This document shows positions 17,916 through 49,667 of a stretch of DNA of 64,000 nucleotides, piece after piece. Source of the DNA: Blastocatellia bacterium. GTDB taxonomy: Bacteria; Acidobacteriota; Blastocatellia; UBA7656. The notes below the pieces were generated by a model. It searched no databases and was not told where the DNA came from. It saw only the letters and a list, made by a program, of their open reading frames with translations. The DNA lies in NCBI GenBank assembly GCA_963728545.1, contig CAVSKO010000002.1, positions 358,874 to 422,873 of the forward strand, given 5' to 3'. How positions within the stretch are numbered: the stretch's first letter is position 1; every line of letters begins with the position of its first letter. Both the position numbers and the translations under genes were made by a program.

Positions 17916-17931
17916 ACGCATTCACTTTCAG

Positions 17932-22708: not shown

Positions 22709-22717
22709 TTAGTGGTC

Positions 22718-22770: not shown

Positions 22771-22939
22771 CATATAACGCGCCGTAGTTCATTGTAGTTT
22801 ATCGGATGGCCAACGGCAGCAAACGGACCTTAAAGATTGTGATTGAATTATAAATCTGTGGCAGGGTTGATTAATCGCAATCGAGACAGGCTTAATAATT
22901 ATTTAGACGGACCGACGCCCCTTTAATTCGAGAGTAAGA

Positions 22940-27199: not shown

Positions 27200-28942
27200 A
27201 TGTCGGCTAAACTGGGCGAGACCCTTCTAAAAGATAATCTAATCACACCTCAGCAGCTCAAAGAAGCGCTCGACTTTCAGAGAGTCAACGGTGGAAGGCT
27301 CGCCTCTACCCTCGTAAGACTCGGAATGCTTTCCGATGAAGAGGTCACGGCAGTCTTGAGCCGCCAGTACGGCGTCCCTTCCGTAAACCTCGACCTTTTT
27401 GAAGTCGATCAGGCCGCAGTCGCCCTTGTGCCGCAAGAGACGGCCGAGCGTTACTCGGTGCTGCCGCTGTCTCGCGTAGGCGCGACGCTCACGCTAGCGA
27501 TGGTCGATCCCACAAACGTCTTTGCCATAGACGACATAAAATTTATGACGGGCCTTTCGGTCGAGCCTGTCGTAGTCTCTGAGACGACACTCAATGCCGC
27601 GATAAAGAAATACTACGGCACGACGCGCGAGATGGAGCTTGCGCGCGTGATGGAAGACCTGGTCGCGGAGACGACGAACAAAAACCCTTACGGCGAAGAC
27701 ATCGACCAGCTTGACATCGAAGAGCACGAAGAGGAGATCGACCTCGAAAACCTCGAAAGGATGGCCGAGGATGCGCCCGTAGTAAAACTCGTAAACGTCA
27801 TCCTCGTAGACGCGCTCCGCCGGGGGGCATCCGACATTCATATCGAGCCTTACGAAAAAGAGTTTCGCGTTCGCTTCCGCATGGACGGCGTGCTTTACAA
27901 CATAATGGCTCCGCCTCTGAAGATGCGTGACGCGCTCACGTCGCGAATGAAGATCATGGCCCGGCTCGACATAGCCGAAAAGCGGCTTCCACAAGATGGC
28001 CGCATAAAGATCAGAGTTCGGCTCGACGGGCGCTCGCGCGAGCTGGATTTCCGCGTATCAACATTGCCCACTATCTTTGGCGAAAAGATGGTGCTTCGCC
28101 TGCTTGATAAAGAGAATCTGCGGCTCGACATGACTCAGTTAGGCTTTGAGGCCGCGAGCCTGGATAAGTTCAAGCGGAACATCTCGAAGCCTTACGGGAT
28201 GGTGCTGGTCACGGGGCCGACGGGTTCCGGAAAAACGTCTACGCTTTACTCGGCGCTGCAAAGCCTGAACACGCCGGAAACGAACATAATGACTGCGGAA
28301 GACCCGGTCGAGTTCAACCTGCCCGGCATAAACCAGGTGCAGATGAAAGAATCGATAGGGCTGAATTTCGCGGCCGCGCTCCGCTCATTCTTGCGCCAGG
28401 ACCCGAACATCATTCTCGTCGGCGAAATCCGAGACTTCGAGACGGCAGAGATCGCGGTCAAAGCCGCTCTGACCGGCCACCTCGTGCTTTCCACCCTGCA
28501 CACAAACGACGCGCCTTCGACTATCAGCCGGTTGATGAACATGGGTATCGAGCCCTTTCTTGTCGCAACTTCTGTGAACTTGATCCAGGCGCAGCGACTT
28601 GTGCGAAGAATTTGTAAAGAGTGCAAAGCCGAGCACCACGCCCCGGCAGAGGCCATGATCGACGTGGGATTCCCGGCCGCCGAGGTCAAAGAGATAAAGA
28701 CGTTCAAAGGCATAGGATGTGGAAATTGTAATGGTACTGGCTACAAGGGCCGAGTCGGTCTTTATGAAGTTATGGAGATAACCGACGAGATACGCGAGTT
28801 GATTCTGGTCGGCGCGTCGGGCTTGGAGCTACGCCGCAAGGCCATTGACGAAGGTATGTTGACGCTCCGCCAGAGCGGGCTTGAGAAGATCAGGCAAGGA
28901 TTGACTACGGTAGAGGAAGTCGTGAGAGAAACAGTTAAGTGA
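27200..28942 (+). CDS. pilB: type IV pilus assembly ATPase PilB (GspE family)
   Basis: N-terminal GSPII_E_N domain, Walker A VTGPTGSGKTST, Asp/His boxes, C-terminal tetracysteine CKECK...CGNCNGTG. Confidence 0.9.
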   Translation: MSAKLGETLLKDNLITPQQLKEALDFQRVNGGRLASTLVRLGMLSDEEVTAVLSRQYGVPSVNLDLFEVDQAAVALVPQETAERYSVLPLSRVGATLTLAMVDPTNVFAIDDIKFMTGLSVEPVVVSETTLNAAIKKYYGTTREMELARVMEDLVAETTNKNPYGEDIDQLDIEEHEEEIDLENLERMAEDAPVVKLVNVILVDALRRGASDIHIEPYEKEFRVRFRMDGVLYNIMAPPLKMRDALTSRMKIMARLDIAEKRLPQDGRIKIRVRLDGRSRELDFRVSTLPTIFGEKMVLRLLDKENLRLDMTQLGFEAASLDKFKRNISKPYGMVLVTGPTGSGKTSTLYSALQSLNTPETNIMTAEDPVEFNLPGINQVQMKESIGLNFAAALRSFLRQDPNIILVGEIRDFETAEIAVKAALTGHLVLSTLHTNDAPSTISRLMNMGIEPFLVATSVNLIQAQRLVRRICKECKAEHHAPAEAMIDVGFPAAEVKEIKTFKGIGCGNCNGTGYKGRVGLYEVMEITDEIRELILVGASGLELRRKAIDEGMLTLRQSGLEKIRQGLTTVEEVVRETVK

Positions 28943-29036
28943 TTTTAGATTTTTGATTTTGGATTAAGGATTGCGCGCCGACCCATCAGAGCTTCGGTCC
29001 CACAATACAAAATCTAGAATCCAAAATCTAAAATCG
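28941..29036 (+). terminator. AT-rich imperfect hairpin between pilB and pilT (gattttagatttt... / ...aaaatctaaaatc), GC-rich loop
   Basis: 13-bp perfect + extended imperfect stem read directly. Confidence 0.4.
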
Positions 29037-29047
29037 CCGGAGGTTAT

Positions 29048-30217
29048 ATGCGAGAGATTGCACTGAGCGATTTGTTGAGGAAGATGATAGAGCTTGGCGG
29101 GTCCGACCTGCACATAACGACGAACTCCGCGCCTATGGTGCGCGTTCACGGTGTGCTGAGGCCGCTTGAGTATCAGGAGATGACGCCGGCAGAGACGAAA
29201 CAGCTTGCCTATTCAGTCTTGACCGACGCGCAGAAGCACAGGTTTGAAGAGACTCTGGAGCTGGATTTCTCATTCGGTATCAAGGGGCTGTCACGCTTCC
29301 GCGCGAACATCTACAACCAGCGCGGCGCGGTCGGCGCGGTCTTCCGTTCAATCCCTTACGAGATACGCTCTTTTGAGGAGCTTGGGCTGCCGGGCGTAAT
29401 CAATAAGCTTTGCGATAAGCCGCGCGGGCTTATACTCGTCACGGGGCCTACCGGGTCGGGCAAATCAACTACGCTTGCCGCGATGCTAGACAAAGTTAAT
29501 CGTGATCGCCACGAGCACATAATCACGGTCGAAGACCCGATAGAATATCTGCACGCGCACAAGGGCTGTATAGTCAACCAGCGAGAGGTCCACTCTGACA
29601 CGCACTCATTCGCCAACGCGCTCAGGGCCGCTCTTCGCCAGGACCCGGACGTGGTGCTCATAGGCGAAATGCGCGACCTTGAGACGACAGAGACCGCGCT
29701 CAGAATAGCCGAGACGGGCCACTTGACTTTTGCCACTCTGCACACGAATTCGGCGGCGTCATCGATCAACCGTATCATAGACATTTTCCCGGCTCACCAG
29801 CAGTCGCAGATTCGCACGCAGCTTTCGATGGTGCTGGAAGGAATCGTCACGCAGGCGCTGCTTCCGAAGGCTAACGGGCAGGGGCGCGCTATGGCTATGG
29901 AGATACTTGTGCCGAACGCGGCTATTCGCAACCTAGTCCGCGAAGACAAGATTCACCAGATTTACTCTATGATGCAGACGGGTCAGGAAAAATACGGGAT
30001 GCAGACCTTCAACCAATCGCTTGTGAGTCTCTACTTCAAGAAGCAGATCACGCTTGAGATGGCTATGGCTCGCTCATCAAACGCGGACGAGTTACAGGAT
30101 TTGATAAATCGCGGGACGGCGGCGATGCAGGGTGCAACTCCTCCTGGCGTCAGACAGCCGGGCTATCCCGCGCAACCCAACCGGCCCATGAATCCGTTAG
30201 GCCGCGTGGGACGGTAA
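29048..30217 (+). CDS. pilT: twitching motility ATPase PilT
   Basis: Walker A VTGPTGSGKSTT; PilT signature AxxHLTFATLHTNSAAxSINRIIDIFP; 389 aa with short C-terminal extension. Confidence 0.9.
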   Translation: MREIALSDLLRKMIELGGSDLHITTNSAPMVRVHGVLRPLEYQEMTPAETKQLAYSVLTDAQKHRFEETLELDFSFGIKGLSRFRANIYNQRGAVGAVFRSIPYEIRSFEELGLPGVINKLCDKPRGLILVTGPTGSGKSTTLAAMLDKVNRDRHEHIITVEDPIEYLHAHKGCIVNQREVHSDTHSFANALRAALRQDPDVVLIGEMRDLETTETALRIAETGHLTFATLHTNSAASSINRIIDIFPAHQQSQIRTQLSMVLEGIVTQALLPKANGQGRAMAMEILVPNAAIRNLVREDKIHQIYSMMQTGQEKYGMQTFNQSLVSLYFKKQITLEMAMARSSNADELQDLINRGTAAMQGATPPGVRQPGYPAQPNRPMNPLGRVGR

Positions 30218-30221
30218 AAGC

Positions 30222-30362
30222 AAAGGATGAAGTATGAGGGATGAAGGATGAAAAAGAAACAAGCCTCGGTTCTGAAATCTGAGATTTGCGATTTTAAATC
30301 CGCGCCGCGCGCAAGCGCATCATGCGCCATATTCATCCTTCATCCCTCATACTTCATCCTTT
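30222..30362. repeat. 31-bp perfect inverted repeat (aaaggatgaagtatgagggatgaaggatgaa) flanking a 79-nt spacer, directly 3' of pilT
   Basis: Arms 30222..30252 and 30332..30362 are exact reverse complements. Confidence 0.8.
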
Positions 30363-30416
30363 AAAGATTGCCCCTTTGGTAGTAAACAGATTTAGAGTAA
30401 AAGTGGGGAAGCCAAA

Positions 30417-31643
30417 ATGCCTACTTATGTTTTCAAAGGCCGCAACCGAATGAACGAGATGGTTGTAGGCGAGCGCGTGGCTGCCGACCGCGCGGCGCTC
30501 GAAGCCATGCTCCGGCGCGAGCAAGTCATCTTGACCAGCGCGCGCGAGAAGGGACGCGAGATCAGTCTGCCCAAGGTTGGGCGCGAGAAGGTCAAGAGCA
30601 AAGACCTGGCGCTGTTCACACGCCAGTTTTCGGTCATGCTCGACGCAGGACTGCCGCTCGTGCAATGTCTTGAGATACTGGGTCAGCAACAGGATAACAA
30701 GTTCTTTCAAAAGGTTATCTTTCAAACACGCGCAGACGTTGAAGCCGGTATGACGCTTGCGGATGCGATGGCTAAACACCCGCGCGTGTTCGAACCGCTC
30801 TACACCAACATGGTTGCGGCGGGCGAAACCGGCGGTATTTTAGACATCATCTTGCAGCGACTGTCAACCTATCTTGAGAAGATGGTCAAGCTCAAGAGCG
30901 ACGTGAAGAGCGCGCTGATCTACCCGATAGCGGTTATCGTGATTTCGATCATAGTCATCTCGATCATCATGATAGTCGTCATCCCCGCCTTCAAGAACAT
31001 CTTTGAAGGACTGCTGGGGCCGGGCGAGAAGCTGCCGTGGTTGACCGAGCTTGTAGTCTCGATATCGCAATTCCTGGCCGGGTTCTGGTGGCTGATAGCA
31101 ATCTTTGTCGGCGTTATGGTCTTTGCGGCGAAAGCCTGGTACAAGACCGACAGCGGGCATCACATGATCGACAGCCTTCAGTTGAAACTGCCGATCTTTG
31201 GGCCTATCCTAAAAAAGATAGCGATAGCGCGGTTCAGCCGAACACTCTCGACCTTGCTCAGCTCAGGCGTGCCCATTCTGGAATCGCTTGAGATAACTGC
31301 AAAGACGGCGGGCAATATCGTAGTCGGCGAAGCGATCCTTAAAGTCCGCACCGGTATCGAGCAGGGCCAGACGTTTGTCGAGCCGTTGAAAGCCAGCCAG
31401 ATCTTTCCAGTGATGGTAAGCCAGATGATAGGGGTCGGCGAGCAGACGGGCGCTTTAGACGCCATGCTTTCAAAGATTGCCGACTTCTACGAGCAGGAAG
31501 TTGATGCCGCGATTGCAAACTTGCTGAGCCTGATGGAACCAGCTATGATTCTGTTCCTCGGCGTCACAATCGGTACTATAGTTATCGCGATGTATCTGCC
31601 ACTGTTCACGCTCATCGGCAAACTGGCAGGCGGCGGAAAATAG
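30417..31643 (+). CDS. pilC: type IV pilus platform protein PilC (GspF family)
   Basis: Two GspF repeats, three TM segments, 408 aa. Confidence 0.9.
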   Translation: MPTYVFKGRNRMNEMVVGERVAADRAALEAMLRREQVILTSAREKGREISLPKVGREKVKSKDLALFTRQFSVMLDAGLPLVQCLEILGQQQDNKFFQKVIFQTRADVEAGMTLADAMAKHPRVFEPLYTNMVAAGETGGILDIILQRLSTYLEKMVKLKSDVKSALIYPIAVIVISIIVISIIMIVVIPAFKNIFEGLLGPGEKLPWLTELVVSISQFLAGFWWLIAIFVGVMVFAAKAWYKTDSGHHMIDSLQLKLPIFGPILKKIAIARFSRTLSTLLSSGVPILESLEITAKTAGNIVVGEAILKVRTGIEQGQTFVEPLKASQIFPVMVSQMIGVGEQTGALDAMLSKIADFYEQEVDAAIANLLSLMEPAMILFLGVTIGTIVIAMYLPLFTLIGKLAGGGK

Positions 31644-31650
31644 TTTGTTA

Positions 31651-31740
31651 GTCAGTTGTCCGTAGTCAGTTGTTTATCGGTTATTTTATAACTTTAGACG
31701 ACGGACAACGGTCTACGGACAACTGACTACGGACAACTGA
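31651..31740 (+). terminator. 23-bp perfect-stem hairpin (gtcagttgtccgtagtcagttgt / acaactgactacggacaactgac) between pilC and pilS, ending 1 nt before pilS ATG
   Basis: Read directly; arms contain tandem acggacaac motifs. Confidence 0.5.
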
Positions 31741-31741
31741 C

Positions 31742-33472
31742 ATGCGTAGAAAGCTTCAATGGTTGTTGGTCTCGCGCCTGGCCTTGGCGGTTGGACTGCT
31801 TGCGGCTGTGGCACTCTTTGAGCGAGATGACGCCAAGCGTTCGTTTATACCCGTCCTCTCGATGCTCGCGGGCGCGGTAGTGGTGTTGTCGGCTTTCTAT
31901 TTCATCGCGCAGCGCACTTCGTCCCGGCTCAAGTTACAGGGGTACATCCAGCTTTCAATCGACCTCGCGCTCGTCACCTGGCTCGTCTATTTGACGGGCG
32001 ATGTCGAGTCGGCCTTCCTTGCGCTATATCTGGTAATTATCTTTGCCGCAAGCACACTATTTGGTAGGCCAGGCGTCCCTCTGCTCGGAGCTTCTGCGGC
32101 TGTGATGTACGCAGTGACGGGCGTACTGGCGATGAGCGGGCTGGCCCCGCGCGCCGACGGGTGGGCGCCTTACGATCTAAAGAGCCTGCCCTGGGCAGAG
32201 TTCATGTTCTCGCTGAACCTTACAGCCATCTTTGCTATCGCGGCGCTGTCGAGCCATCTGGCAGAGCGGATTCACCGCAGCGAATCCGAACTGGCTACGG
32301 CCACATCAGAGCTTGCAACCGCTACGAAAGAGTTGGCCGATAATCGCCTTGTTAACGACCGTATCATAGAGAGCATGCGAAGCGGCCTTGTGACGACCGA
32401 CCTGCGCGGCAATATTCTAACGTTCAACCGCGCCGCCGAAGAGATAACAGGTTACAAAGCGCAGGACGTTAAGGGCGACAATATCTCTTCGATTTTCGGG
32501 GACATTGACAAACAGATTGAAGTCGGGTTGGAATCGATCCGCACGCGGTCACGCTTGCCGCGATTTGATATCGGGTGCAAGACAGCAGACGGGCGCGACC
32601 TGCACCTGGGCTTTTCTGTCGCGCCGCTGGTTGACGAAGCGCCGGAACTGCAAACAAATGCAAACGGCTTCCCGTTTCGCGGTTACGTCTTGACCTTTCA
32701 AGACCTGACCGAAGTGATGGAGTTGGAGCGCGAAGTTCGCCGCCAGGAGCGGCTCGCTGCGCTCGGCAAGATGGCTGCGGGGCTTGCGCACGAGATTCGA
32801 AACCCGCTCGCATCCATGCGCGGGTCTGTCCAGGTGCTCGCAAGCGAGCTGAGCCTTTCGCGCGACCAATCTCAGTTGATGGAGATAGTCCTGCGCGAAT
32901 CTGACAGGCTGAATCGAATCGTTTCGGACTTTCTCACTTATGCCAGGCCGCCTCGGATCGAGCGAACGGTCATCGAACTGTCCAGCATCTTGTCAGAGAC
33001 CGTGGCCTTGCTCCGCAACAGCCCCGAGCTGACACCCGATCATCAGGTGGCGGAGGATTTTCCCGCCGAGCCTGTTCACTATAACGGCGACCCGAACCAG
33101 ATTCGACAGATCTTCTGGAACCTCGCTCGCAACGCCATACAAGCGATGCCGAGCGGCGGAGAGCTGCGCGTGACGCTTGAAGCCGCCCGCGGGCGCGAAG
33201 TGACTATAACCTTTAGCGACACGGGTCAGGGCATGAGCCGGGAGCAGAAGGAGAGAATGTTCGAGCCGTTCAACTCTTCGAGCGGCGGGACGGGCCTTGG
33301 GATGGCGATAGTTTATCAACTTGTTCGGGACCACAACGGAAAGATAGACGTTGAAAGCGAAGCCGGAAACGGCACTCGTATCTCGATAAAGCTTCCGGGC
33401 AGCGGGCGGGTCAAACGCGAGTTTGACTCCCCGGTTCCAGAGACATCGGAAGCAATAGTAACCCGCGTTTGA
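31742..33472 (+). CDS. pilS: sensor histidine kinase PilS-like (multi-TM, PAS, HisKA, HATPase_c)
   Basis: N-terminal 6 TM; PAS; H-box AAGLAHEIRNPL; N/G1/G2 boxes; paired with NtrC-type regulator upstream of sigma-54-driven pilins. Confidence 0.75.
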   Translation: MRRKLQWLLVSRLALAVGLLAAVALFERDDAKRSFIPVLSMLAGAVVVLSAFYFIAQRTSSRLKLQGYIQLSIDLALVTWLVYLTGDVESAFLALYLVIIFAASTLFGRPGVPLLGASAAVMYAVTGVLAMSGLAPRADGWAPYDLKSLPWAEFMFSLNLTAIFAIAALSSHLAERIHRSESELATATSELATATKELADNRLVNDRIIESMRSGLVTTDLRGNILTFNRAAEEITGYKAQDVKGDNISSIFGDIDKQIEVGLESIRTRSRLPRFDIGCKTADGRDLHLGFSVAPLVDEAPELQTNANGFPFRGYVLTFQDLTEVMELEREVRRQERLAALGKMAAGLAHEIRNPLASMRGSVQVLASELSLSRDQSQLMEIVLRESDRLNRIVSDFLTYARPPRIERTVIELSSILSETVALLRNSPELTPDHQVAEDFPAEPVHYNGDPNQIRQIFWNLARNAIQAMPSGGELRVTLEAARGREVTITFSDTGQGMSREQKERMFEPFNSSSGGTGLGMAIVYQLVRDHNGKIDVESEAGNGTRISIKLPGSGRVKREFDSPVPETSEAIVTRV

Positions 33473-33487
33473 TTTAGAGAAGGGAAT

Positions 33488-34978
33488 GTGATGGAGAAGA
33501 TACTGGTTGTAGATGACGAGCGCAGCATGCGCGAATTGCTTGAACTCGTTTTAAAGCGCGAGGGTTACGCCGTTCACACGGCAGAGAATGGGACCCGCGC
33601 ACTTGAGTTCGTGCGCCAGAATGTTTATGACCTTCTCATTTCGGATGTAAAGATGCCCGACATCAACGGCATCGAGCTTCTTGAGCGCGTCCGCGAAATC
33701 TCGCCCGAAACAATGGTCATAATGATAACCGCATTCGCCACCGTGGACACGGCTCGCCGCGCGTTCAAGCTTGGCGCTGAAGATTTCGTAATTAAAGATT
33801 CGGGCTTCGATGTCGAAGAGTTGAAAGTGACGGTTGGCAAGGTGCTTGAGAAGAAACACCTGCGCCAGGAAAACGTGCTTTTGAAACGTGAGCTTCGCCA
33901 GCGCAACTCGCTCGACAACATCATAGGCCGATCACCACAGATGCAGGCCGTCTACCAGATGATCGAGACCGTCGCCGCTACGACTTCGACCGTGCTTATA
34001 ACCGGCGAGTCGGGGACCGGCAAAGAGCTTGTCGCGCGCGCTATTCACAGTATGTCAAACCGCGCGGGCGCTCCGTTTGTGTCTATCAACTGCGGCGCAT
34101 TCACGGAAACGCTTTTGGAGTCCGAGCTGTTCGGCTATATGAAGGGATCGTTTACGGGCGCGGTATCTAACCGCAAGGGGCTGTTTGAGGCAGCCGAAGG
34201 GGGAACGATCTTTCTCGACGAGATAGGTGAGACGACGCCTGCCATGCAGGTCAAGATGCTCCGCGTGCTTCAGGAGCGAAGCATTCGCCGCGTCGGCGGC
34301 ATTGAAGAGATTCCCGTAGACGTTCGGGTCATCGCCGCTACCAACCGTGATCTTGCGCAGATGGTTGAAGACGGCACATTCCGCAACGACCTGTTTTATC
34401 GTATCAGCGTGATTCCTATCGAAATGCCACCGTTGCGGTCTCGTCGCGCAGACATACCTGACCTTGTGCGCCACTTTCTTGAAAAGTACAGCGCGGCTGC
34501 CGGTCGGCCCACGCTTGAGATTTCCGAAGAGGCAATGCGTTATCTTGAGTCGTATGACTGGCCGGGCAATGTTCGAGAGCTTGAGAACACTATCGAACGG
34601 GCCGTCGCGCTTGAGCCTGGTCGCATCGCGGGAGTAGACCGCCAAAGAGTCGAATCAGGCCCGCTCGCAGGATTGCCGGACCGCCGTCTCAAGCCTGAGT
34701 GGTTGCCTGAGCGAATATTGAAATACAAGCCCAGGAACATTACAGACATCGATTTACCGGAAGACGGGTTGGATTTGGAAGCCTATCTGTCTCAGCTCGA
34801 AAAGGACTACATTATCCGCGCGCTGCAACGCACGGGCGGCAACCAGACTCGCGCCGCAGAGATACTGAATATGTCGGTCCGCAGTCTTCGTCATCTTCTG
34901 GACAAACATAAGATTCGCCAGACGGCGAGCCTTCTGCGCGAGTCTACGGCTGTCGGCGACAGCGCGGCGAATAAATGA
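33488..34978 (+). CDS. pilR: sigma-54-dependent response regulator PilR-like (NtrC family)
   Basis: Receiver domain (DDE...D...K), AAA+ sigma-54 interaction domain GESGTGKE / GAFTGA-like, C-terminal Fis-type HTH. Confidence 0.8.
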
Positions 34979-35244: not shown

Positions 35245-35300
35245 GATCATTACAATGGTTTTCGAACAAGCAGGGCGATTTTATGTTCAAGGAGATGGTT

Positions 35301-35726
35301 ATGAAAAGTGAGCGTGGCTTTTCGTTGATAGAGCTTTTAGTAGTAGTCGGCATTCTTATGATAATTTCGGCGATAGCTATACCGGGGCTTCGCAAAGCAA
35401 GGAATAATGCTAACTCAGGATCGGCGATACAATCGCTCAGAACGCTTACGACAGCCGAACACTTATACGAGAGAAGGTTCCATCAATACGCCACGTTAGC
35501 CCAACTTGTGCCCGAAGGCACGATTGATACTCATCTCGGAACAGGATTGAAGAGCGGTTACAGTTTCACGCTGACTCTGAGCGCAGGAAACCAGAATTTT
35601 TCCTGCACAGCAACGCCACTTGATGATCCTCCTAACATGCCCCATTACTTTGTCGATCAGACCGGCGTCATCCGTTACAACGACGGTGCGCCTGCCAATG
35701 CATCAAGCTCTCCGATACCGAGGTAG
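35301..35726 (+). CDS. type IV pilin (prepilin, N-terminal GFSLIELLVV methylation motif)
   Basis: Leader MKSERG|FSLIELL, Glu+5; RBS aaggag 6 nt upstream; track start 35283 is 6 codons earlier. Confidence 0.8.
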   Translation: MKSERGFSLIELLVVVGILMIISAIAIPGLRKARNNANSGSAIQSLRTLTTAEHLYERRFHQYATLAQLVPEGTIDTHLGTGLKSGYSFTLTLSAGNQNFSCTATPLDDPPNMPHYFVDQTGVIRYNDGAPANASSSPIPR

Positions 35727-35887: not shown

Positions 35888-35977
35888 GTTATCAAGCTTG
35901 AGATTAAAGTTAGTTTGGCCGCTGAGGACAACATTGCCTACGGCGAGACAAAAGAAAAAAGGAGCAAAAGGAGCATT

Positions 35978-36463
35978 ATGAAGAAAGAGAACGGATTTTC
36001 ACTGATAGAGCTGCTGATAGTGGTAGCCATCATAGGCATCATCGCCGCTATCGCAATCCCGAATTTGCTTAAGTCCCGACAGGCGGCCAACGAGTCGTCA
36101 GCCATTGGATCGGTTCGCACGTTGGGTACGGCGCAAGCAACTTACCAATCTACTCGCGGTCGAGGTAAAGACTTCGCGGTCTCTCTGGCTGCAATGAACA
36201 CGGAAGGCTTGATCGACTCAGCGTTGTCGAGCGGTGCCAAGAGCGGCTTCGCGTTCACGTGCGTAGGCGTGGCAGCGACTGCAACAGCACCGTCGTACTT
36301 TGACAGCTCGGCTCAGCCGCAATCGTCCGGTACGTTCGGAACAGGCAACAGGTCATTCTATTCGAACGAGACGTTTGTGATATATGCATTGGATGGCGGT
36401 ACAGCGCCGACAGCGGCATTCCCGGTGAGGGTGCCTGCTGCACCTGCCTTACCGATTGAATAG
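35978..36463 (+). CDS. pilA: type IV pilin, tandem duplicate copy 1 (161 aa; track ORF 35825 over-extended)
   Basis: MKKENG|FSLIELLIVVAIIGIIAAIAIPNLL; RBS aaggag; differs from copy 2 at 5 of 161 residues. Confidence 0.8.
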   Translation: MKKENGFSLIELLIVVAIIGIIAAIAIPNLLKSRQAANESSAIGSVRTLGTAQATYQSTRGRGKDFAVSLAAMNTEGLIDSALSSGAKSGFAFTCVGVAATATAPSYFDSSAQPQSSGTFGTGNRSFYSNETFVIYALDGGTAPTAAFPVRVPAAPALPIE

Positions 36464-36490
36464 AACCTCTATCAATCTGGTTGAGTGTGA

Positions 36491-36531
36491 AACGGGCGAG
36501 CCGCCAAAAAGGCTTGCCCGTTCTTTTTTTT
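36491..36531 (+). terminator. Rho-independent terminator after pilin 2 (stem aacgggcgagcc/ggcttgcccgtt + T8)
   Basis: GC stem followed by ttcttttttttattt. Confidence 0.8.
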
Positions 36532-36685
36532 ATTTAAAGAAATTTATGTGTCTCAATTGAAATTGAACAAAAAATGGCATTCATCACTTAACGAAATTTG
36601 GGAATGATAACCTGCCGCCAACTGTTTTCAAAAAGCTTTTCTTTAAGAGACACCAGTTAAAACAAGAGCGACTTTCTATTTCGCG

Positions 36686-36701
36686 TGGCACAGCCTTTGC
36701 C
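36686..36701 (+). promoter_or_regulatory. sigma-54 promoter (TGGCAC-N5-TTGCC) upstream of pilin 3
   Basis: Consensus -24/-12 ~90 nt upstream of ATG 36792. Confidence 0.6.
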
Positions 36702-36791
36702 AATGCTAGTAACGCGATCTGTCGTAGTTCGGCCGCTAGGGACAAAACGACCTACGGCGAGACAAAAGAAAAAAGGAGCAAAAGGAGCATT

Positions 36792-37277
36792 ATGAAGAAA
36801 GAGAACGGATTTTCACTGATAGAGCTGCTGATAGTGGTAGCCATCATAGGCATCATCGCCGCTATCGCAATCCCGAATTTGCTTAAGTCCCGACAGGCGG
36901 CCAACGAGTCGTCAGCCATTGGATCGGTTCGCACGTTGGGTACGGCGCAAGCAACTTACCAATCTACTCGCGGTCGAGGTAAAGACTTCGCGGTCTCTCT
37001 GGCTGCAATGAACACGGAAGGCTTGATCAACTCAGCGTTGTCGAGCGGCAACAAGAGCGGTTTCACATTCACGTGCGTAGGCGTGGCGGCGACTGCAACA
37101 GCACCGTCATACTTTGATGCCTCAGCGCGTCCGCAATCGTCCGGAACATTTGGAACAGGCAACAGGTCATTCTATTCGAACGAGACGTTTGTGATATATG
37201 CATTGGATGGCGGTACAGCGCCGACAGCGGCATTCCCGGTGAGGGTGCCTGCTGCACCTGCCTTACCGATTGAATAA
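36792..37277 (+). CDS. pilA: type IV pilin, tandem duplicate copy 2 (161 aa)
   Basis: Identical to copy 1 except D/N, A/N, A/T, S/A, Q/R in the central region; identical 45 nt upstream incl. RBS. Confidence 0.8.
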   Translation: MKKENGFSLIELLIVVAIIGIIAAIAIPNLLKSRQAANESSAIGSVRTLGTAQATYQSTRGRGKDFAVSLAAMNTEGLINSALSSGNKSGFTFTCVGVAATATAPSYFDASARPQSSGTFGTGNRSFYSNETFVIYALDGGTAPTAAFPVRVPAAPALPIE

Positions 37278-37469: not shown

Positions 37470-37952
37470 ATGAAGAAGAGACAAGAGCGAGGTTTTTCGC
37501 TTATCGAGTTGCTTATCGTGGTTGCCATTATCGGTATTATCGCCGCACTCGCAATTCCCAGCTTGTTGAAATCTCAACAGGCAGCTCGCGAGACGGCTGC
37601 AATCGGTGAAGTCTCGGCTATTGGCAAAGCGCAAGTGACTTACCAGATGACAAAGGGTCGCGGGAAATTCGGGACGCTTGCACAGCTTGGTGAAGACGGC
37701 GGGCTTAATGCCGCGTTAGCATCCGGCACAAAGAGCGGTTATCTTTACACTTCTGATCCTGTCGTTGTCGAGGGATTGCCCGGGATGTACGACACGACTG
37801 CGAAACCCAGTTCAACGGGGAAATTCGGAACGGGCAATATTTCCTATTACTCTAATGAGTCTAATACTATTTACGAAGCAGAAGGCGGGACGCCGCCTAC
37901 GTGCACTCCGCAAGACCGCATTCCAAAAGACGGTCAGATCATAACAAGGTAA
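37470..37952 (+). CDS. type IV pilin, divergent paralog (160 aa)
   Basis: MKKRQERG|FSLIELLIVVAIIGIIAALAIPSLL; RBS gaggag. Confidence 0.8.
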   Translation: MKKRQERGFSLIELLIVVAIIGIIAALAIPSLLKSQQAARETAAIGEVSAIGKAQVTYQMTKGRGKFGTLAQLGEDGGLNAALASGTKSGYLYTSDPVVVEGLPGMYDTTAKPSSTGKFGTGNISYYSNESNTIYEAEGGTPPTCTPQDRIPKDGQIITR

Positions 37953-37962
37953 GCAGAATTTA

Positions 37963-38001
37963 ATGGGCCGGGGAGCGCTCTCGGAGTTTGCCCCGGCCCA
38001 T
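37963..38001 (+). terminator. stem-loop after pilin 4 (tgggccgggg / ccccggccca)
   Basis: 10-bp GC stem; no clear T-run. Confidence 0.45.
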
Positions 38002-38116: not shown

Positions 38117-40078
38117 TTGAAATCTACACGCACGAAAACCACAGGCAAACACGCGCGCGCGCGCGAAGCCTCAGCCAACGCGCACGATAAAGATTCATTC
38201 TCACTCGTAGAGCAACTGAGCGCGGGCCGCGTAATAATGCTCATTTGTCTCGTCGCGTTTCTGGCTTATGCGAACTCTCTCGGCGGGGATTTTGTCTTTG
38301 ACGACAACGAGCAGATAGTCGAAAACCAGAATCTGCGTTCCTGGGATAACATCACGCGCGGGTTTACCACTCACGTGTGGGCTTTTCGCGAGCAAGGCGA
38401 AACTACGAACGTCCCCGCGCCACTGCCGTACTACAGGCCGCTCTTTACTCTGATGCTGACGGTCGAGTATCAGCTATTCGGGTTGCAGCCGCAGTGGTGG
38501 CATCTTGTGAGCCTGATTCTTCATATCATCTGTGCGGTCGAAATCTTTTATATCATTCTGGTATTATCGCGCCGAAAACTGGTTGCCTTAATCGCCTCGT
38601 TACTGTTTGCTGTCCACCCTGTCCACGCAGAATCTGTAAGCTGGATCAGCGGGATGACCGATCCGTTGTTTGGCGTATTCTTCCTCGCGTCGTTTTACTT
38701 TTATCTCAAGCATCGTGACGGTCATCCACCCGCAGCCCCATCGGGGAAAGAGAAGGCGTCCGCGTCGTCGGAGAAAAGAAGGTATCTTGTGTGGTCGCTT
38801 CTGTTTTTCATCGTCGCGGCTTTCGCTAAAGAAACAGCCCTCAGCCTCGTTATTTTGATATTCGGCTACGAAGCGGTCATCTCAAATGGCAAGATGAGCG
38901 CTCGCTTGATAGAAGCTGCAAAGCGCGCGTTGCCTTTTGTCGCGGCGGCTTTGGTTTACCTGATCCCGCGATATCTGGTTCTCGGTGAAATGATGTGGAG
39001 CAATCCTCAAGCTCCGGATCGGCCTTTCTCTCACACGCTTTTTACGCTGCCTTTTGTGATTTGCAGTTACTTGCTGCACCTCGTATGGCCCGTCGGCCTG
39101 AGCGTCACTTATGACACGAGGTTTATAACTTCAGCGGCGTCTCCAACATTCTTCTTGCTCGCCATTATTCTCGCCGTCATCACAGGCTTACTGATCTATT
39201 TTCGCGCTCGTATCAGCAAACAAGTATGGCTGGCGTTGTTGATGATTATTGTCCCGCTATTACCTGTGCTTAAACTCGGACAGGTTTCGCAAGAGCAGTA
39301 CCTGGTCTTTGATCATTACCTGTATATCTCTGTTGCAGGGTTGGGTTATCTGGCGGGGCTTGGGTTGTTTAGGCTTTCGCAGTCGAGGACCGAAAAATTG
39401 AGCCTTGCGGCGGCGGCATTGTTAGTGGTCGCGCTTGCAGCCGGGACGCATTTTGAGAATAAGGCGTGGGCCAATTCTTATGCGGTCTGGTCGAATGCCG
39501 CGCGCGTGAGCCCGAATTATTGGGCGCCTCAATACAACACCGCGCTAGAGTTGATTAAGCTCAAGCAATACGACAGCGCGCGCGCGATGCTTGAGCGAGC
39601 GAGTGCGCTCAAGCCTGACGAGCCGACAATCTATGACGCGCTAGGCCGCGCTCATCTTGGCATGAGTGATCTCGAAGCTGCCGAAGCGAGTATCAAGCGC
39701 GCGCTTGAGATCAACCCTCAGATGGTAGAATCGCTCAATAATCTCGGCACTGTTTATTTTGAGGCGAAAGATTATGAGAAGGCCGAAAAGTATTTTACCG
39801 AAGCGTTGCGTGTAAACCCGAAAGCGACGGCAGTGCAGTACAATCTGGCTCGCTGCTACTCTCGCTTGGGCCGGGACAATGACGCCGTGAGGGAATTTGA
39901 ACAGTTCTTAAAATCGTCGCCCAATGATGCCGAAGCCCTTTATGAGCTTGGAGAGGTCTATAAAAAAAGAGGGCGGCGCGATGACGCTATTCGCTCTTTC
40001 GAGCGCGCGCTTGATTTGACAAAATCACAAGAACTGAAGGAAAAGATTTCAAACAGTTTAAGCGGCTTAAAACGATAG
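38117..40078 (+). CDS. TMTC/PMT-like GT-C-fold glycosyltransferase (DUF1736-type multi-TM domain) with C-terminal TPR repeats
   Basis: First-loop acidic motif VFDDNEQIV; YRPLFTLMLTVEY and WWHLVSLILHI motifs typical of TMTC/PMT_2 family; >=10 TM; 5-6 TPR repeats at C-terminus. Confidence 0.6.
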   Translation: MKSTRTKTTGKHARAREASANAHDKDSFSLVEQLSAGRVIMLICLVAFLAYANSLGGDFVFDDNEQIVENQNLRSWDNITRGFTTHVWAFREQGETTNVPAPLPYYRPLFTLMLTVEYQLFGLQPQWWHLVSLILHIICAVEIFYIILVLSRRKLVALIASLLFAVHPVHAESVSWISGMTDPLFGVFFLASFYFYLKHRDGHPPAAPSGKEKASASSEKRRYLVWSLLFFIVAAFAKETALSLVILIFGYEAVISNGKMSARLIEAAKRALPFVAAALVYLIPRYLVLGEMMWSNPQAPDRPFSHTLFTLPFVICSYLLHLVWPVGLSVTYDTRFITSAASPTFFLLAIILAVITGLLIYFRARISKQVWLALLMIIVPLLPVLKLGQVSQEQYLVFDHYLYISVAGLGYLAGLGLFRLSQSRTEKLSLAAAALLVVALAAGTHFENKAWANSYAVWSNAARVSPNYWAPQYNTALELIKLKQYDSARAMLERASALKPDEPTIYDALGRAHLGMSDLEAAEASIKRALEINPQMVESLNNLGTVYFEAKDYEKAEKYFTEALRVNPKATAVQYNLARCYSRLGRDNDAVREFEQFLKSSPNDAEALYELGEVYKKRGRRDDAIRSFERALDLTKSQELKEKISNSLSGLKR

Positions 40079-40963
40079 ATGCAACTGCTTGAAATTGATA
40101 GCATCTATATTGCGAGGACAATGGCTACCACTGAAATCACAAGGCAGCAGGTCGCCGGGCCGATGTTTAACTTGAGGCCGGGAATGCGCGCGAAGATCGC
40201 CGCAATAGCGATCAACACGTTCCGCGAATCGGTCCGCGACCGCGTGCTCTACAATTTGATACTGTTTGTTTTGATCCTGATTGGCGCGTCCGTCTTTGTC
40301 AGCGAGCTTTCAATTGACCAGGAGAGCAAGTTCATAATGGACCTGGGGTTGAGTTTGATGCTCGTATTCGGCGCGCTTATAGCAATCTTCATAGGCGTCG
40401 GCCTCGTCTTCAAAGAGATAGACAAGCGCACGATCTATAATCTGCTTTCAAAGCCTGTCCACCGGTATGAATTCATAATAGGAAAGTTCTTCGGGCTATG
40501 CATGACGCTGTTAGTCAATTGCGTCGTGATGGTCATCGGAATTGAGCTGGCCTTGATGTACGTAAACGGCGGGTTCGTCTCGTTGCAGTTGACGCTTTTG
40601 CCGGCGGCCTATTTGATCTTCCTTGAGCTTATGCTTGTGGTCGCGGTCGCGCTTATGTTTTCCAGCTTTTCAACGCCTATGCTTGCTGCGCTCTTTACAT
40701 TCGCGGTCTATGTCATAGGCCATTTCAGCCCCGATTTGCGACTTGCCGCCGAGTTGACCGATTCTGCGGTGACTCGCGTTGTGCTGATAGCGCTTTATTA
40801 TTTGCTGCCGAACCTGTCGAATTTTAGTTTTATCAGCGAAGCCTCGCGCGGCAAGATCGTTCCTCTCTCAATGGCTTTGTCGGCTACCGTCTATGCGATC
40901 ATATATGCGAGCATATTGCTATCCGCCGCCGCTTTGATTTTTCAGAAACGGAATTTTAAGTGA
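40079..40963 (+). CDS. ABC-2-type transporter permease-like integral membrane protein (no cognate ATPase adjacent)
   Basis: 6 predicted TM helices with ABC-2 family pattern; start may be 40121. Confidence 0.5.
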   Translation: MQLLEIDSIYIARTMATTEITRQQVAGPMFNLRPGMRAKIAAIAINTFRESVRDRVLYNLILFVLILIGASVFVSELSIDQESKFIMDLGLSLMLVFGALIAIFIGVGLVFKEIDKRTIYNLLSKPVHRYEFIIGKFFGLCMTLLVNCVVMVIGIELALMYVNGGFVSLQLTLLPAAYLIFLELMLVVAVALMFSSFSTPMLAALFTFAVYVIGHFSPDLRLAAELTDSAVTRVVLIALYYLLPNLSNFSFISEASRGKIVPLSMALSATVYAIIYASILLSAAALIFQKRNFK

Positions 40964-41889
40964 TTATGAAACGCGCGATACCAATAGTCATAATCATCGC
41001 GGGGTTTTGCCTGCTTTATCCATTGCAGCGCTGGATCGACTCATCCACTCCACGCGAATCGACAAACGAAGAGAACCTCTATTTCTCTTCCGGCGAATTG
41101 ATAAAGAAGATGAGCCTGGGCCTGGATGGGCTTGCCGCAGACATATACTGGATAAGAACAGTTCAATACTTTGGGCGCAAGCTGATCGATAGCCGCGCAC
41201 CCGGCGAGCCGCCGTCCTTTGGAAGCACCAAAGAGATTCGTATGGAATTGCTTGCCCCGCTGCTCGATATTATTGTCACGCTCGACCCTCAACATATTTC
41301 GGCTTACAGATTCGGAGCGATCTTTTTGCCGGAGCGCGATCTGGCGGCTGCCATAAAATTGCTTGAGCGCGGCATCGCCGCCAATCCGAACGAATGGAGG
41401 CTCTATCAAGACCTGGCCTACATTTACTGGCAGGCGGGAAACCAGGCGAAGGGGGAAGAGAAGGCGGGTTATTATGCGAAAGCCGCCGATTGGTACGAGC
41501 GTGGCAGCCGAGTCGAAGGCGCGCGCGATTGGATGGCCGACATGGCCGGAGTGATGAGGATACAAGGCGGCGAGCGCGCGACGGCTCGGAAAATCTATGA
41601 AGAGTATGCAAAGAGTGAAGAGACGAACATACGCAATCAGGCGGCGGCCAGATTAAAACAGCTCGACTCGCTAGATCAGATCGATAAGATCAACGAAGAG
41701 TTGCGCAAGAGAGTCGAGCAGACCGGACAATGCCCGGCGAGCTTGCGATTGCTTGCGAGAGAGCTTTATTCAAAAGAGCTGACGTTGAATATAGAAATGT
41801 CGCCCGTTAACCCGGAAGGCTTTCCGTATGCACTCAACGCGGCAACCTGTCGGGCAGAGCTTGATAAACAATTGACTATTCCGCGCTGA
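40960..41889 (+). CDS. hypothetical membrane-anchored protein with TPR-like helical repeats
   Basis: N-terminal TM anchor MIMKRAIPIVIIIAGFCLLY; alpha-helical repeat-rich; 4-nt overlap with upstream gene. Confidence 0.4.
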   Translation: MIMKRAIPIVIIIAGFCLLYPLQRWIDSSTPRESTNEENLYFSSGELIKKMSLGLDGLAADIYWIRTVQYFGRKLIDSRAPGEPPSFGSTKEIRMELLAPLLDIIVTLDPQHISAYRFGAIFLPERDLAAAIKLLERGIAANPNEWRLYQDLAYIYWQAGNQAKGEEKAGYYAKAADWYERGSRVEGARDWMADMAGVMRIQGGERATARKIYEEYAKSEETNIRNQAAARLKQLDSLDQIDKINEELRKRVEQTGQCPASLRLLARELYSKELTLNIEMSPVNPEGFPYALNAATCRAELDKQLTIPR

Positions 41890-42004: not shown

Positions 42005-42832
42005 TTAAGAATGCTGCTGGCTCTTCAGGTCTATCGTTACGGTAGCGCCTGAAGTCTTTATCCTGGCTCGAACAGGCGTGCGCTTTTCGTCGTCGGTCAC
42101 CCAGATAAACATCTGGCCGCTGCGTTTCACATAACGCCCGTCAAAGACTTTTGCGTCCAGCAAAATCGTCTTGAACTTGATCGAGTTGACCTTAATCTCT
42201 TCGCGACGGCCTACGACGACTTCGATGTTATACACCTGGCCGCTGTCGCTTATGGGCACCTGGATCACATCGCCCTGGTTGAGCTTCTGAGTCCGAACGA
42301 AATATGTAGCCGATAAAATATCTTGAATCCACGAAGGCGAGCTTGCCTCTTTTACGTTTGCCGTTCCCGCGCTTTTCGACAGGTCTCTGTCTATGTAAGT
42401 CACGCGACCGGCCTCGCGGTCGATAACTGCTTTCTGCTCGCGCCGCGTCGCCCCTTCCTCGATCTGTTTGGTTGAGGTGTGAAGCCCTAGATCATTTGTG
42501 CTGACCATCGAATGAAATCGGTCCCTGACTTTGATGCCGAACAGCTTCGGGAAAAGACCTTTTGAGACGGCTTCTGCTTTAAGCTCTATCAAGTCAGATT
42601 GCTGCGGCTCGGTAGGCTTTGACACCCAGAGCTTCAGCTCGCCGATAGTGCCTGAGAAGATCAGTTTTGAGAAATTTATTTCATAAGTAAGCGTCTCGCC
42701 GACCTTGAATGGAAGCGGTTGAGTAATTTTCGGAGCGGTGACGGCAGCGACCTTGTCCGACGCGACCTGCCCGAAGCCCACGGATGCGCCCTGAATCAAA
42801 ACCATCAATACGATTAATAGCTTCTTAATCAT
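42005..42832 (-). CDS. secreted DUF3108-like protein
   Basis: Signal peptide; beta-rich 275-aa protein resembling DUF3108 family common in Acidobacteria/Bacteroidetes. Confidence 0.45.
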   Translation of the reverse strand: MIKKLLIVLMVLIQGASVGFGQVASDKVAAVTAPKITQPLPFKVGETLTYEINFSKLIFSGTIGELKLWVSKPTEPQQSDLIELKAEAVSKGLFPKLFGIKVRDRFHSMVSTNDLGLHTSTKQIEEGATRREQKAVIDREAGRVTYIDRDLSKSAGTANVKEASSPSWIQDILSATYFVRTQKLNQGDVIQVPISDSGQVYNIEVVVGRREEIKVNSIKFKTILLDAKVFDGRYVKRSGQMFIWVTDDEKRTPVRARIKTSGATVTIDLKSQQHS

Positions 42833-42877
42833 AATCTAATTATACCTGTCTCGAACCGACTTTGGAACAACGAGGTG

Positions 42878-43492
42878 TTAGATGCGAAAAAAGTACCTCG
42901 CGGCTAACAGGGCCATTACAAAAGCGATTCCGATTGCAGCCCGGTATTCGCGGTGGCGAAGGTATAAAGACGAATCAAAGCTTCTTATCGCATTGGGCGG
43001 GCTGACTTGAGAGTCTGGCTGGTTGTCGGCCTTGTTGGGTCTGTAAGGAGTCAAGCGCGGAAACATCAACGGCACCCGTCGGCTGTAGATTTCATACTCA
43101 TCCGGAAAAAGCTCTTGCATATACTCGGCTTCGGCAGCCATCACGGGCAAGTAGATCAAAAGATAGACTGCGATAAAAAGCGCCACAAACCAGAGCGAGT
43201 TGGTCGCGACTGCTATGCCTGTCGCCATAATAAATGTGCCGAAATAGAGCGGGTTGCGCGTGTAGGCATACGGCCCGGCTACGCAGAGTTCCTGGTTCTT
43301 TCTCAAATGCCCCGAAGCCCACGCCCTGATCGTCAGACCGATTAACGCGAGCGCCGCGCCCGCTATCAACGAGATGCCGGTGGGACGCGCAGCGATAACC
43401 AACAGCGGGGCAAGAATGAATCCCGCAGGTACTCTTATCCGTTGCGCTATCTTGCGAAATGTAAATCTTGTTTCTCTGCTAGCCTCAACCAT
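42878..43492 (-). CDS. isoprenylcysteine carboxyl methyltransferase (ICMT) / phospholipid methyltransferase family membrane protein
   Basis: 5 TM; conserved GPYAYTRNPLYFG and EE...L motif. Confidence 0.65.
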   Translation of the reverse strand: MVEASRETRFTFRKIAQRIRVPAGFILAPLLVIAARPTGISLIAGAALALIGLTIRAWASGHLRKNQELCVAGPYAYTRNPLYFGTFIMATGIAVATNSLWFVALFIAVYLLIYLPVMAAEAEYMQELFPDEYEIYSRRVPLMFPRLTPYRPNKADNQPDSQVSPPNAIRSFDSSLYLRHREYRAAIGIAFVMALLAARYFFRI

Positions 43493-43501
43493 ATTTATTC
43501 A

Positions 43502-43563
43502 GTGATGAGTAATGACTGATGAGTGAAAAACAGAGTGCCGATACTCATTACTCATTACTCATC
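43502..43563 (-). terminator. imperfect hairpin (agtgatgagtaatga... / ...tcattactcatcact) between minus-strand genes
   Basis: 15-bp perfect + imperfect extension, AT-rich, repeat-like arms. Confidence 0.35.
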
Positions 43564-49294: not shown

Positions 49295-49667
49295 AAACTG
49301 ATTCACAGGCAAGCTCACGACACTCCTGCCGGTCGCCTGTACAAAATCTCGCCGTTCTGATTTGTTATTCCCCGAATAGAGAAGCCCGCCAGAAGATAAC
49401 CGTAGCTGCTCTTTGGCACGGTTAGAAGGCCCTAAAAAGAGTATTGAACGAGCTTTAATAAGTTGTATTATTATTGTGGATATTGTGGTAAAGGACAACC
49501 GGATTTTATAATTGCTCGGTTGGCAGAAAGGCCCAAAGAGGTCTGACCGCAATAGGTTCCTTAGGTGTTGCCCCCACTCACAGATGGATTTTATAGTTCA
49601 GGGCAATAGCGCGCCTGCTCATGCCAACAGTGTGTATTAGCGCGAGCGCCCGGCAAAGGTTTTAAGC

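Follow-up and report, generated by a model that had tools for sequence, protein, structure and literature searches.

A GT-C/TPR protein encoded beside a pilin array in a Blastocatellia bacterium is a candidate pilin O-glycosyltransferase with TMTC-like motifs

Results

The pil locus and its GT-C/TPR gene

The DNA analysed here, referred to as the window, is a stretch of 64,000 nucleotides (64 kb) from a Blastocatellia bacterium of the phylum Acidobacteriota (assembly GCA_963728545.1, contig CAVSKO010000002.1), and it carries a pil region in which a gene for a 653-residue membrane protein, the subject of this study and a candidate pilin O-glycosyltransferase, directly follows an array of type IV pilin genes. 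The gene order is pilB-pilT-pilC-pilS-pilR, four pilin genes, the 653-residue open reading frame (ORF), an ABC-2 permease gene and a gene for a 309-residue protein; coordinates are those of the window and of its plus strand unless marked (-). A preliminary description of this DNA had placed a GT-C glycosyltransferase with TPR repeats at 38117..40078, and our analysis recovered a 653-residue frame at exactly this position together with all of the quoted peptide strings, namely VFDDNEQIV (residues 60-68), YRPLFTL (106-112) and WWHLVSLILH (127-136). Judged by its relatives, this frame is a real gene and no chance ORF, as its product has 524 word-sharing homologs and an exhaustive family search returned 55,945 cluster representatives at E<=1e-3, of which 17,072 reached E<=1e-10. 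The identical database protein (P0001) has 613 residues, its start having been called at M41 (38237). The TTG start of the 653-residue form appears the more likely one because L34 and R38, which lie upstream of M41, are conserved among homologs and because a start at M41 would shorten the first transmembrane (TM) helix. No further paralog of the family was found in the window.

Fold and topology of the protein

The membrane domain spans residues 1-452 (38117..39472), as delimited from the helix list, hydropathy, the distribution of Lys and Arg residues and conserved columns, and is followed by a periplasmic TPR domain at residues ~454-652 (39476..40075). According to the AlphaFold2 (AF2) model and the positive-inside rule, the membrane domain comprises a basic cytoplasmic N-terminal tail, 11 TM helices and motif-bearing periplasmic loops, in keeping with the at least 10 TM helices that had been noted earlier. 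The C-terminal ~200 residues match TPR strongly (Pfam TPR_2, E 1.6e-32), and the 12 helices of the AF2 model in this region correspond to about 6 repeats, where 5-6 had been counted before. In the predicted topology the catalytic-type motifs all face the periplasm, as does the TPR domain.

Residues 1-450 gave no match to Pfam, NCBIfam or PDB sequences even at E<=10. Within the wider family, Pfam PMT_2 matches 22 of 53 diverse representatives. A set of 16 TPR-free family members gave four matches to PMT_2 and three to PMT, and none to DUF1736 at E<=0.1. A TPR-free family profile searched against PDB sequences returned chance matches only, and the results of a full-length profile against the PDB and of a Foldseek search of the PDB were dominated by TPR proteins and uninformative for the membrane domain. 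Structural comparison of the membrane domain itself found its closest matches among protein O-mannosyltransferases, with the two values of each match in brackets: yeast Pmt4 (18.8, 323) and Pmt2 (17.1, 316), together with human STT3B (17.1, 350) and archaeal AglB (17.0, 349). On the modelled structure, these matches establish the GT-C fold of the membrane domain. The protein shares the multi-spanning membrane fold common to PMT, STT3/AglB and ArnT, and the acidic motif that GT-C enzymes carry in the first extracytoplasmic loop is present as D62-D63, in a loop that the topology makes periplasmic. The 653-residue protein is thus almost certainly a GT-C glycosyltransferase.

Catalytic-type motifs

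Conservation was read from four alignments: a close clade (A1, 59 sequences), diverse representatives (A2, 53), a set of 16 members (A3) and 10 proteobacterial proteins of 538-684 residues encoded beside pilA (A4). Across close and distant homologs, the invariant or nearly invariant positions are D62-D63, Y105/R107/P108, W128-H129, H167-P168-x-H170-x-E172...W176, K238-E239, R285 and D399...Y401/Y403. These catalytic-type motifs, shared by hundreds of homologs, match, loop for loop, the TMTC motifs M1, M2, the TM3 motif, M4 and M7 published by Eisenhaber et al. (PMC7801869). The preliminary description had called the motifs characteristic of TMTC/PMT_2 (DUF1736); of this, the likeness to TMTC is borne out by M1, M2, M4 and the TM3 motif, with M7 agreeing in part, and the assignment to the Pfam families is unsupported, as neither PMT_2 nor DUF1736 matches the protein at E<=10.

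The loop-1 motif F59-V-F-D62-D63-N-E-Q-I-V68 (38291..38320) holds the GT-C catalytic 'DD' and is the counterpart of TMTC M1 in extracytoplasmic loop 1 (EL1) and of the DDX motif of the pilin glycosyltransferase TfpW; neither D62 nor D63 varies in A1 (59/59), A2 (53/53), A3 (16/16) or A4. In the same loop, P104-Y-Y-R107-P108 (PYYRP; 38426..38440) corresponds to TMTC M2 'SHKSYRP' of EL1, and R107 and P108 are found in 52/53 sequences of A2 and are invariant in A1 and A3. The TM3/EL2 motif A160-SLLFAVHPVHAESVSW-I177 (38594..38647) has H167, P168, H170, E172 and W176 conserved, and its segment IASLLFAVHPVHA is identical at 11 of 13 residues to 'IASLLFAVHPIHT' of human TMTC3. K238-E-T-A-L-S243 (38828..38845) is the counterpart of TMTC M4 'KETxxT' in EL3, a predicted phosphate/metal site; K238 does not vary in any of the alignments, and 52/53 sequences of A2 have E239. 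In EL5, D399-H400-Y-L-Y403 (39311..39325) takes the place of TMTC M7 'ERxxY' with His replacing Arg. Alignments A1 and A2 further define a clade-specific loop, N296-PQAPDR-P303-F-SHTLFTL-P312 (39002..39052), with a 'PF-X7-P' string; N296, P297, Q298, A299, R302 and P303 are invariant in A1 and gapped or variable in A2.

The upstream pilin array

Genes for pilB, pilT, pilC, a pilS-like kinase and a pilR-like sigma-54 activator occupy 27200..34978 upstream of the pilins, and the same genes are found in four sampled orthologous loci (L001, L002, L083 and L084; enzymes of 56-75 % identity). The array itself consists of the prepilin genes pil1 (type A; 35283..35726), which has orthologs in L001 and L002, pil2 (type B; 35978..36463), pil3 (type B; 36792..37277), a near-identical tandem copy of pil2, and pil4 (type C; 37470..37952), of a type that closes the array, ahead of the enzyme gene, in those loci whose pilin types were compared by alignment. 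All four carry the Pfam N_methyl motif, and the Ser/Thr-rich character ascribed to them in the preliminary description is evident: Ser and Thr make up 18-20 % of the mature pilins and 22-25 % of their C-terminal halves, compared with 12 % in the window's other proteins, and the peptide quoted earlier lies in pil2.

The pil2/pil3 pair is a recent tandem duplication (35911-37024); its period is 814 bp and the copies are 98 % identical across 300 nt. Type B copy number ranges from 1 to 3 across related genomes, types A and C being single-copy. Type B and C pilins (pil2-pil4; alignment A5) conserve the string 'FGTGN..[FY]YSNE[TS]' across genomes, and each mature pilin has one Cys and hence no C-terminal disulfide loop. 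N-glycosylation through the conserved N-x-S/T sequon 'YSNE[TS]' was considered and judged the less probable linkage, as the sequon lacks an acidic residue at -2 and the nearest enzymes resemble O-mannosyltransferases.

A strong RNA hairpin (37963..38001), which lacks a T-run, begins just past the stop codon of pil4 and separates it from the enzyme gene; the 71-nt fragment that holds it has a folding free energy of -34.9 kcal/mol (z -4.5), and it is possibly an attenuator or processing signal. A canonical intrinsic terminator also lies 3' of pil2 (36491-36522). Together, the hairpin and the pil2 terminator may determine how strongly pilins are expressed relative to the accessory genes; a conserved mechanism controlling accessory-gene expression near pilin genes is mentioned in the literature.

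Recurrence of the pilin linkage

The four orthologous loci share the order pilS-pilR-(3-5 pilins)-enzyme-ABC-2 permease-...-~305-residue protein, and two of them have a second GT-C/TPR paralog 3' of the permease. Pilins also lie directly upstream of the enzymes of L116, L118 and L124 (46-51 % identity). A metagenome scan seeded with a subgroup of ~37 % identity (the 'second paralog') yielded 80 loci, in which members of this subgroup sit in permuted modules, such as three pilins-ABC2-p309-like-GT-C (L113) and pilin-ABC2-p309-like-GT-C (L096). Among the nine loci of this subgroup with at least 2.5 kb of upstream sequence, a pilin is present in 7/9, the permease in 7/9 and the 309-residue protein (p309) in 6/9. 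More distant members (28-33 % identity) have a prepilin within 4.5 kb in 12 of the 31 loci with adequate flank, and their typical order is PilS-like kinase-sigma-54 activator-GT-C-pilin-(second GT-C)-...-ABC ATPase-ABC2-p309.

The linkage extends to a second phylum. We fetched 80 proteobacterial pilA loci by means of a Pseudomonas-type pilin N-terminus, P. paraeruginosa not being among the genomes returned, and scanned all of their ORFs with a TPR-free family hidden Markov model. A family member of 538-654 residues is the next same-strand gene after pilA in 9 of the 74 loci that include 2 kb or more of downstream sequence (L017, L042, L048, L050, L059, L060, L063, L069 and L070), with a second member in tandem in L063 and L069; an equal amount of upstream DNA contained two family matches only, both on the opposite strand. 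These pilA-adjacent proteins, at about 21-24 % identity to the window protein, keep DD, RP, H, HP, KE and R..Y in register, and an hhalign comparison of A4 with the family gave a probability of 99.8 % (E 2e-29, 352 columns). The proteobacterial proteins have no Pfam match in their membrane domain, and most named relatives are annotated 'hypothetical protein'; organisms with such a gene include Alcanivorax, Pseudohongiella, Ottowia, Sideroxydans and Nitrotoga.

That the linkage recurs across gene orders, across subfamilies and in more than one phylum speaks, as judged from these comparisons, for a functional coupling between pilins and GT-C/TPR proteins, and it strengthens the pilin glycosylation that had been proposed from the window alone. 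TfpW-type pilin glycosylation may be far commoner than the literature indicates.

Companion genes

The start of the ABC-2 family permease gene (40079..40963; PF12679) abuts the stop codon of the enzyme gene, and the permease is kept beside the enzyme in the four orthologous loci and beside GT-C paralogs in the permuted modules. The next gene, p309 (40960..41889), encodes a membrane-anchored, weakly TPR-like protein with homologs in the modules of L096, L113, L086 and L140. Permease and ~305-residue p309-like protein accompany GT-C/TPR genes and pilins in several orders (L086, L096, L113, L140, L150), and a DrrA/GldA-like ABC ATPase is adjacent in some related loci, with none adjacent in the window.

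Some related loci carry additional modification genes. In L124, the position 3' of the enzyme is taken by a protein with a methyltransferase domain and a membrane enzyme of the Sulfatase family (L124 3006-6183), to which phosphoethanolamine transferases belong, among them PptA, the phospho-form transferase of Neisseria pilin, and L086 carries a PTPS_related membrane protein (L086 1122-2966). In L118, whose enzyme is a window-type ortholog of 50 % identity, two genes intervene between enzyme and ABC-2 permease (L118 7929-11670): the first encodes a GT2 fused to a methyltransferase and the second a 746-residue PMT_2 GT-C. The best relatives of the L118 GT2 are dolichol-phosphate-mannose synthase (PDB 5mlz, E 4e-19), ArnC (E 6e-16), GtrB-like sll0501, AglJ and PpgS, which by sequence relationship is the signature of the polyprenyl-monophosphate-sugar synthase class. 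Synthases of this class feed periplasmic GT-C enzymes in the scheme reviewed in PMC11127046. Overall, the pilin loci look like hot-spots for modification enzymes.

The directly neighbouring position of transporter-type genes and pilins invites comparison with Myxococcus xanthus, in which the ABC-transporter-type genes pilG-pilH-pilI directly follow pilA in a pilB-pilT-pilC-pilS-pilR-pilA cluster. The likeness is one of gene type and position only, with an ABC-2 permease 3' of the pilins and an ABC ATPase in related loci, whereas the window module has no ATPase and we know of no GT-C/TPR gene described in the M. xanthus pil module. In this sense the permease/ATPase/p309 trio resembles PilH, PilI and PilG; pilGHI is required for piliation in Myxococcus according to the literature.

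Other features of the window

Downstream of p309, a conserved block at 42005-44617 (-), convergent with the pil module, encodes a DUF3108 protein, a PEMT/ICMT-like methyltransferase that weakly matches LmtA, the lipid A methyltransferase of Leptospira, and a heptosyltransferase I (TIGR02193, E 1e-53, score slightly under the curated cut-off), followed by dxr. Two tandem S8 subtilases with fervidolysin-like prodomains lie downstream of the pil region (47590-51317). Elsewhere, a MacB-type permease at 4410-6843 (-) is apparently split into two overlapping ORFs of 208 residues (N-part of MacB_PCD) and 619 residues (MacB_PCD, FtsX), which may mean a frameshift or that the gene is a pseudogene. At 10716-13843 there is a MacB-like permease that is intact, together with its ATPase. 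The region 14167-25411 holds an extracytoplasmic function (ECF)-type sigma factor with a zf-HC2 anti-sigma factor, then DUF4097 'toastrack' proteins and, beyond these, two tandem paralogous ~825-residue CBM9/DUF5916 proteins.

Discussion

The conserved motifs, the coupling to pilin genes, the GT2 partner in L118 and the precedent of TfpW lead us to propose, with a probability of roughly 60 %, that the 653-residue protein is a periplasmic, polyprenyl-phosphate-sugar-dependent pilin O-glycosyltransferase, and pilins are probably its main substrate. In the mechanism we envisage, a polyprenyl-monophosphate sugar would be made on the cytoplasmic face of the inner membrane by a GT2 of the DPM1/ArnC/GtrB type encoded elsewhere in the genome, flipped across the membrane and bound at the periplasmic-loop residues D62-D63, R107, H167/H170/E172, K238-E239 and D399. 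The C-terminal periplasmic TPR domain would recruit membrane-anchored pilin subunits, and the sugar would then be moved to Ser/Thr hydroxyls of the Ser/Thr-rich globular part of the pilin before pilus polymerisation. Mannose as the transferred sugar is unsupported.

Among characterised systems, the nearest is TfpW from Pseudomonas aeruginosa Pa5196 / P. paraeruginosa PA7, a group IV pilin D-arabinofuranosyl (D-Araf) transferase that is necessary and sufficient for alpha-1,5-D-Araf oligomers on pilin Ser/Thr residues (bioRxiv 10.1101/2020.04.19.049825). TfpW is a GT-C class protein of 646 residues whose N-terminus is cytoplasmic and which has 11 predicted TM helices, a DDX motif in periplasmic loop 1 that is essential, and, in the periplasm, a large TPR domain at its C-terminus; its gene lies directly 3' of pilA, and ArnT is its best Phyre2 template (bioRxiv 10.1101/2020.04.19.049825). 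By this published description, the window protein is alike in length (653 and 646 residues), in its 11 TM helices and cytoplasmic N-terminus, and in its loop-1 DD and periplasmic TPR domain. Its gene is likewise directly downstream of a pilin, both in the window and in L001, L002, L083, L084, L116, L118 and L124. The two systems differ in that the window enzyme follows 3-5 pilins of three types instead of one pilA, has no tfpX beside it, comes from Acidobacteriota (Blastocatellia) and is accompanied by a conserved ABC-2 permease and p309. A Pfam scan of the larger ORFs of the window revealed no D-Araf genes (DprE1/DprE2/UbiA-type).

Eukaryotic TMTC1-4, the cadherin O-mannosyltransferases of CAZy family GT105, which move mannose from Dol-P-Man onto Ser/Thr of cadherin-type beta-strand domains, are by their published definition built alike, with an 11-TM GT-C domain and an extracytoplasmic C-terminal TPR domain. 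The same loops hold the same motifs, namely DD (EL1), YRP (EL1), 'ASLLFAVHP(I/V)H' (TM3), KET (EL3) and [DE]xxxY (EL5); in terms of the TMTC set, M1 is present, M2 is partly so (YYRP), and M4 and M7 appear as KETALS and DHYLY. Differences are that DHYLY of the window clade lacks the M7 Arg, where the wider family has DRYLY, and that DUF1736 does not match the window protein at E<=10, although human TMTCs are reported in the literature to match it at E<1e-30. Further, the bacterial donor lipid would be polyprenyl phosphate instead of dolichol, and the proposed acceptor is pilin instead of cadherin. As with TfpW, ArnT has been the modelling template for TMTC (PMC7801869).

Two other families can be set apart from the window protein. 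It is no PMT, because it lacks a MIR domain, having TPR instead; identity is 12-14 %, and PMT (PF02366), MIR and PMT_4TMC gave no Pfam match. The PMT family (yeast Pmt1/2/4, actinobacterial Pmt) constitutes GT39. Nor is it of the TfpO/PglL type: these enzymes belong to a Wzy_C/O-antigen-ligase-like family and transfer undecaprenyl-pyrophosphate-linked oligosaccharides, and the window protein has no Pfam match to a Wzy_C or O-antigen-ligase-like domain and has a GT-C fold. TfpO/PilO and PglL resemble the enzyme as proposed here in acting in the periplasm, in modifying pilins with lipid-linked donors and in often being encoded beside pilA; TfpO and TfpW are described in the literature as unrelated, structurally distinct enzymes.

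Several observations weigh against a pilin O-glycosyltransferase, and some of them favour other explanations. Orthology to TfpW is indirect, running by sequence through homologous pilA-adjacent proteobacterial proteins, with TfpW compared by its description only. The exact TfpW motif YX6PFX7P is absent from the window protein and from the A4 proteins; the nearest string in the former is N296-X6-P303-F-X7-P312, with N replacing Y. None of the listed relatives from an A4-seeded database search was named from published TfpW species. For the acidobacterial members, acceptor and activity are assigned from sequence. The family is also not exclusively pilin-linked, since 19 of the 31 distant-member loci (about 60 %) have no pilin nearby, and family membership alone does not imply a pilin substrate. 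No donor-synthesis, flippase or sugar-nucleotide gene lies near the enzyme in the 64-kb window, where a linked GT2 synthase or small flippase is likewise absent and no GtrA-type flippase was identified, so that the donor would have to be made elsewhere in the genome.

Such a pattern could also be expected of a broad-specificity periplasmic protein O-glycosyltransferase, like actinobacterial Pmt or Neisseria PglL, for which pilins are one of many substrates or none and the position in the pil region reflects co-regulation. The sheer size of the family, the lack of a nearby pilin in most distant members, the diversity of partners that TPR domains bind and the lack of dedicated donor genes in the window are all compatible with this explanation. 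We nevertheless consider it unlikely, as pilin linkage in at least four subfamilies and gene orders and two phyla is hard to explain without a pilin-directed function, and the presence of two GT-C/TPR paralogs around the pilins in some loci suggests dedicated enzymes.

The Arg-to-His change in EL5 is a further point against the proposed activity. His is found at position 400 in 58/59 sequences of the close clade A1; Arg is otherwise universal in the family, being present in 52/53 sequences of A2, in all metagenomic members covering the region and in the more distant pilin-adjacent orthologs. The M7 Arg is described as strictly conserved in TMTC (PMC7801869). With the universal Arg of [DE]RxxY replaced by His, donor binding may differ or be weakened in this clade. 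Its new invariant Arg, R302, sits in the inserted loop NPQAPxRP (39002-39025, residues 296-303), which may be a compensating change or mark an altered donor site. Loss of this Arg would also be understandable if the protein were mainly a non-catalytic or catalytically altered pilus-biogenesis scaffold that, with the ABC-2 permease and p309, serves pilin membrane handling or export in the manner of PilG/H/I. Enzyme, permease and p309 do travel together, and an ABC ATPase is adjacent elsewhere, recalling Myxococcus pilGHI. A scaffold is nonetheless quite improbable in our view: D62, D63, R107, H170, E172, K238 and E239 are invariant in the His400 clade, which points to selection on an active site, R302 in the neighbouring periplasmic loop could compensate, and one ortholog locus (L118) includes a GT2 donor-synthase gene.

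The last point concerns synteny. The genes for DUF3108, the PEMT-like protein, heptosyltransferase I and dxr are likewise syntenic in L001, L002, L083 and L084, so that the pilin-enzyme order within the class may be inherited synteny, the lipopolysaccharide (LPS) genes and dxr being equally conserved, and synteny within Blastocatellia is on its own weak evidence of coupling. These conserved opposite-strand neighbours, and the fact that GT-C enzymes such as ArnT, the template for the TfpW and TMTC models, act on lipids, could suggest a non-protein acceptor (lipid A/LPS core or exopolysaccharide in the manner of ArnT/GtrC, perhaps with the ABC-2 permease), which we regard as hardly probable given that the LPS genes are oppositely oriented and are absent from L113, L096, L140, L142 and the proteobacterial loci, where pilins are present, that the best structural matches are protein O-mannosyltransferases, and that GT-C enzymes acting on proteins (TMTC, TfpW) typically end in a TPR domain, which ArnT lacks.

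The preliminary description had held that a TMTC-type enzyme in the role of a pilin glycosyltransferase would be new. This claim fails, because a GT-C/TPR pilin glycosyltransferase is already known in TfpW, which has the same size, topology, DDX motif, TPR domain and position beside pilA, and to this extent the value of our findings is incremental. How widely GT-C/TPR genes are associated with pilins, the module of four parts that includes ABC-2 permease and p309, and the Arg-to-His change specific to one clade appear not to have been described previously, and our literature search on pilin glycosylation in Acidobacteria found no paper. The module as we propose it may combine an array of pilins and p309 with a single GT-C/TPR enzyme or a pair of them and with a PilI-like ABC-2 permease, to which an ATPase is added in some cases. 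A wider and more doubtful proposition, which we put forward tentatively, is that TMTC-like GT-C/TPR enzymes are a widespread, unrecognised class of pilin O-glycosyltransferases in Acidobacteriota and many Proteobacteria, with TfpW as its sole studied example, a four-part maturation module in acidobacteria and a His-for-Arg subclade with altered donor binding.

What these results bring together is one sequence family that joins the proteobacterial pilA-adjacent GT-C/TPR genes, which are TfpW-like in position and architecture, with several subfamilies from acidobacteria and with the motifs of TMTC. The presence of a GT-C/TPR gene within a pilin module would offer a genomic rule for predicting glycosylated pili, and such systems could provide a tractable bacterial model for TMTC-type, TPR-guided O-glycosylation. 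Acidobacteriota are abundant in soil, and a dedicated acidobacterial pilin glycosyltransferase would be relevant to adhesion and to the evasion of phages specific for pili, as has been shown for TfpW in Pseudomonas. If the wider proposition is true, bacterial relatives of the eukaryotic TMTC cadherin O-mannosyltransferases would act natively on the beta-rich head domains of pilins.

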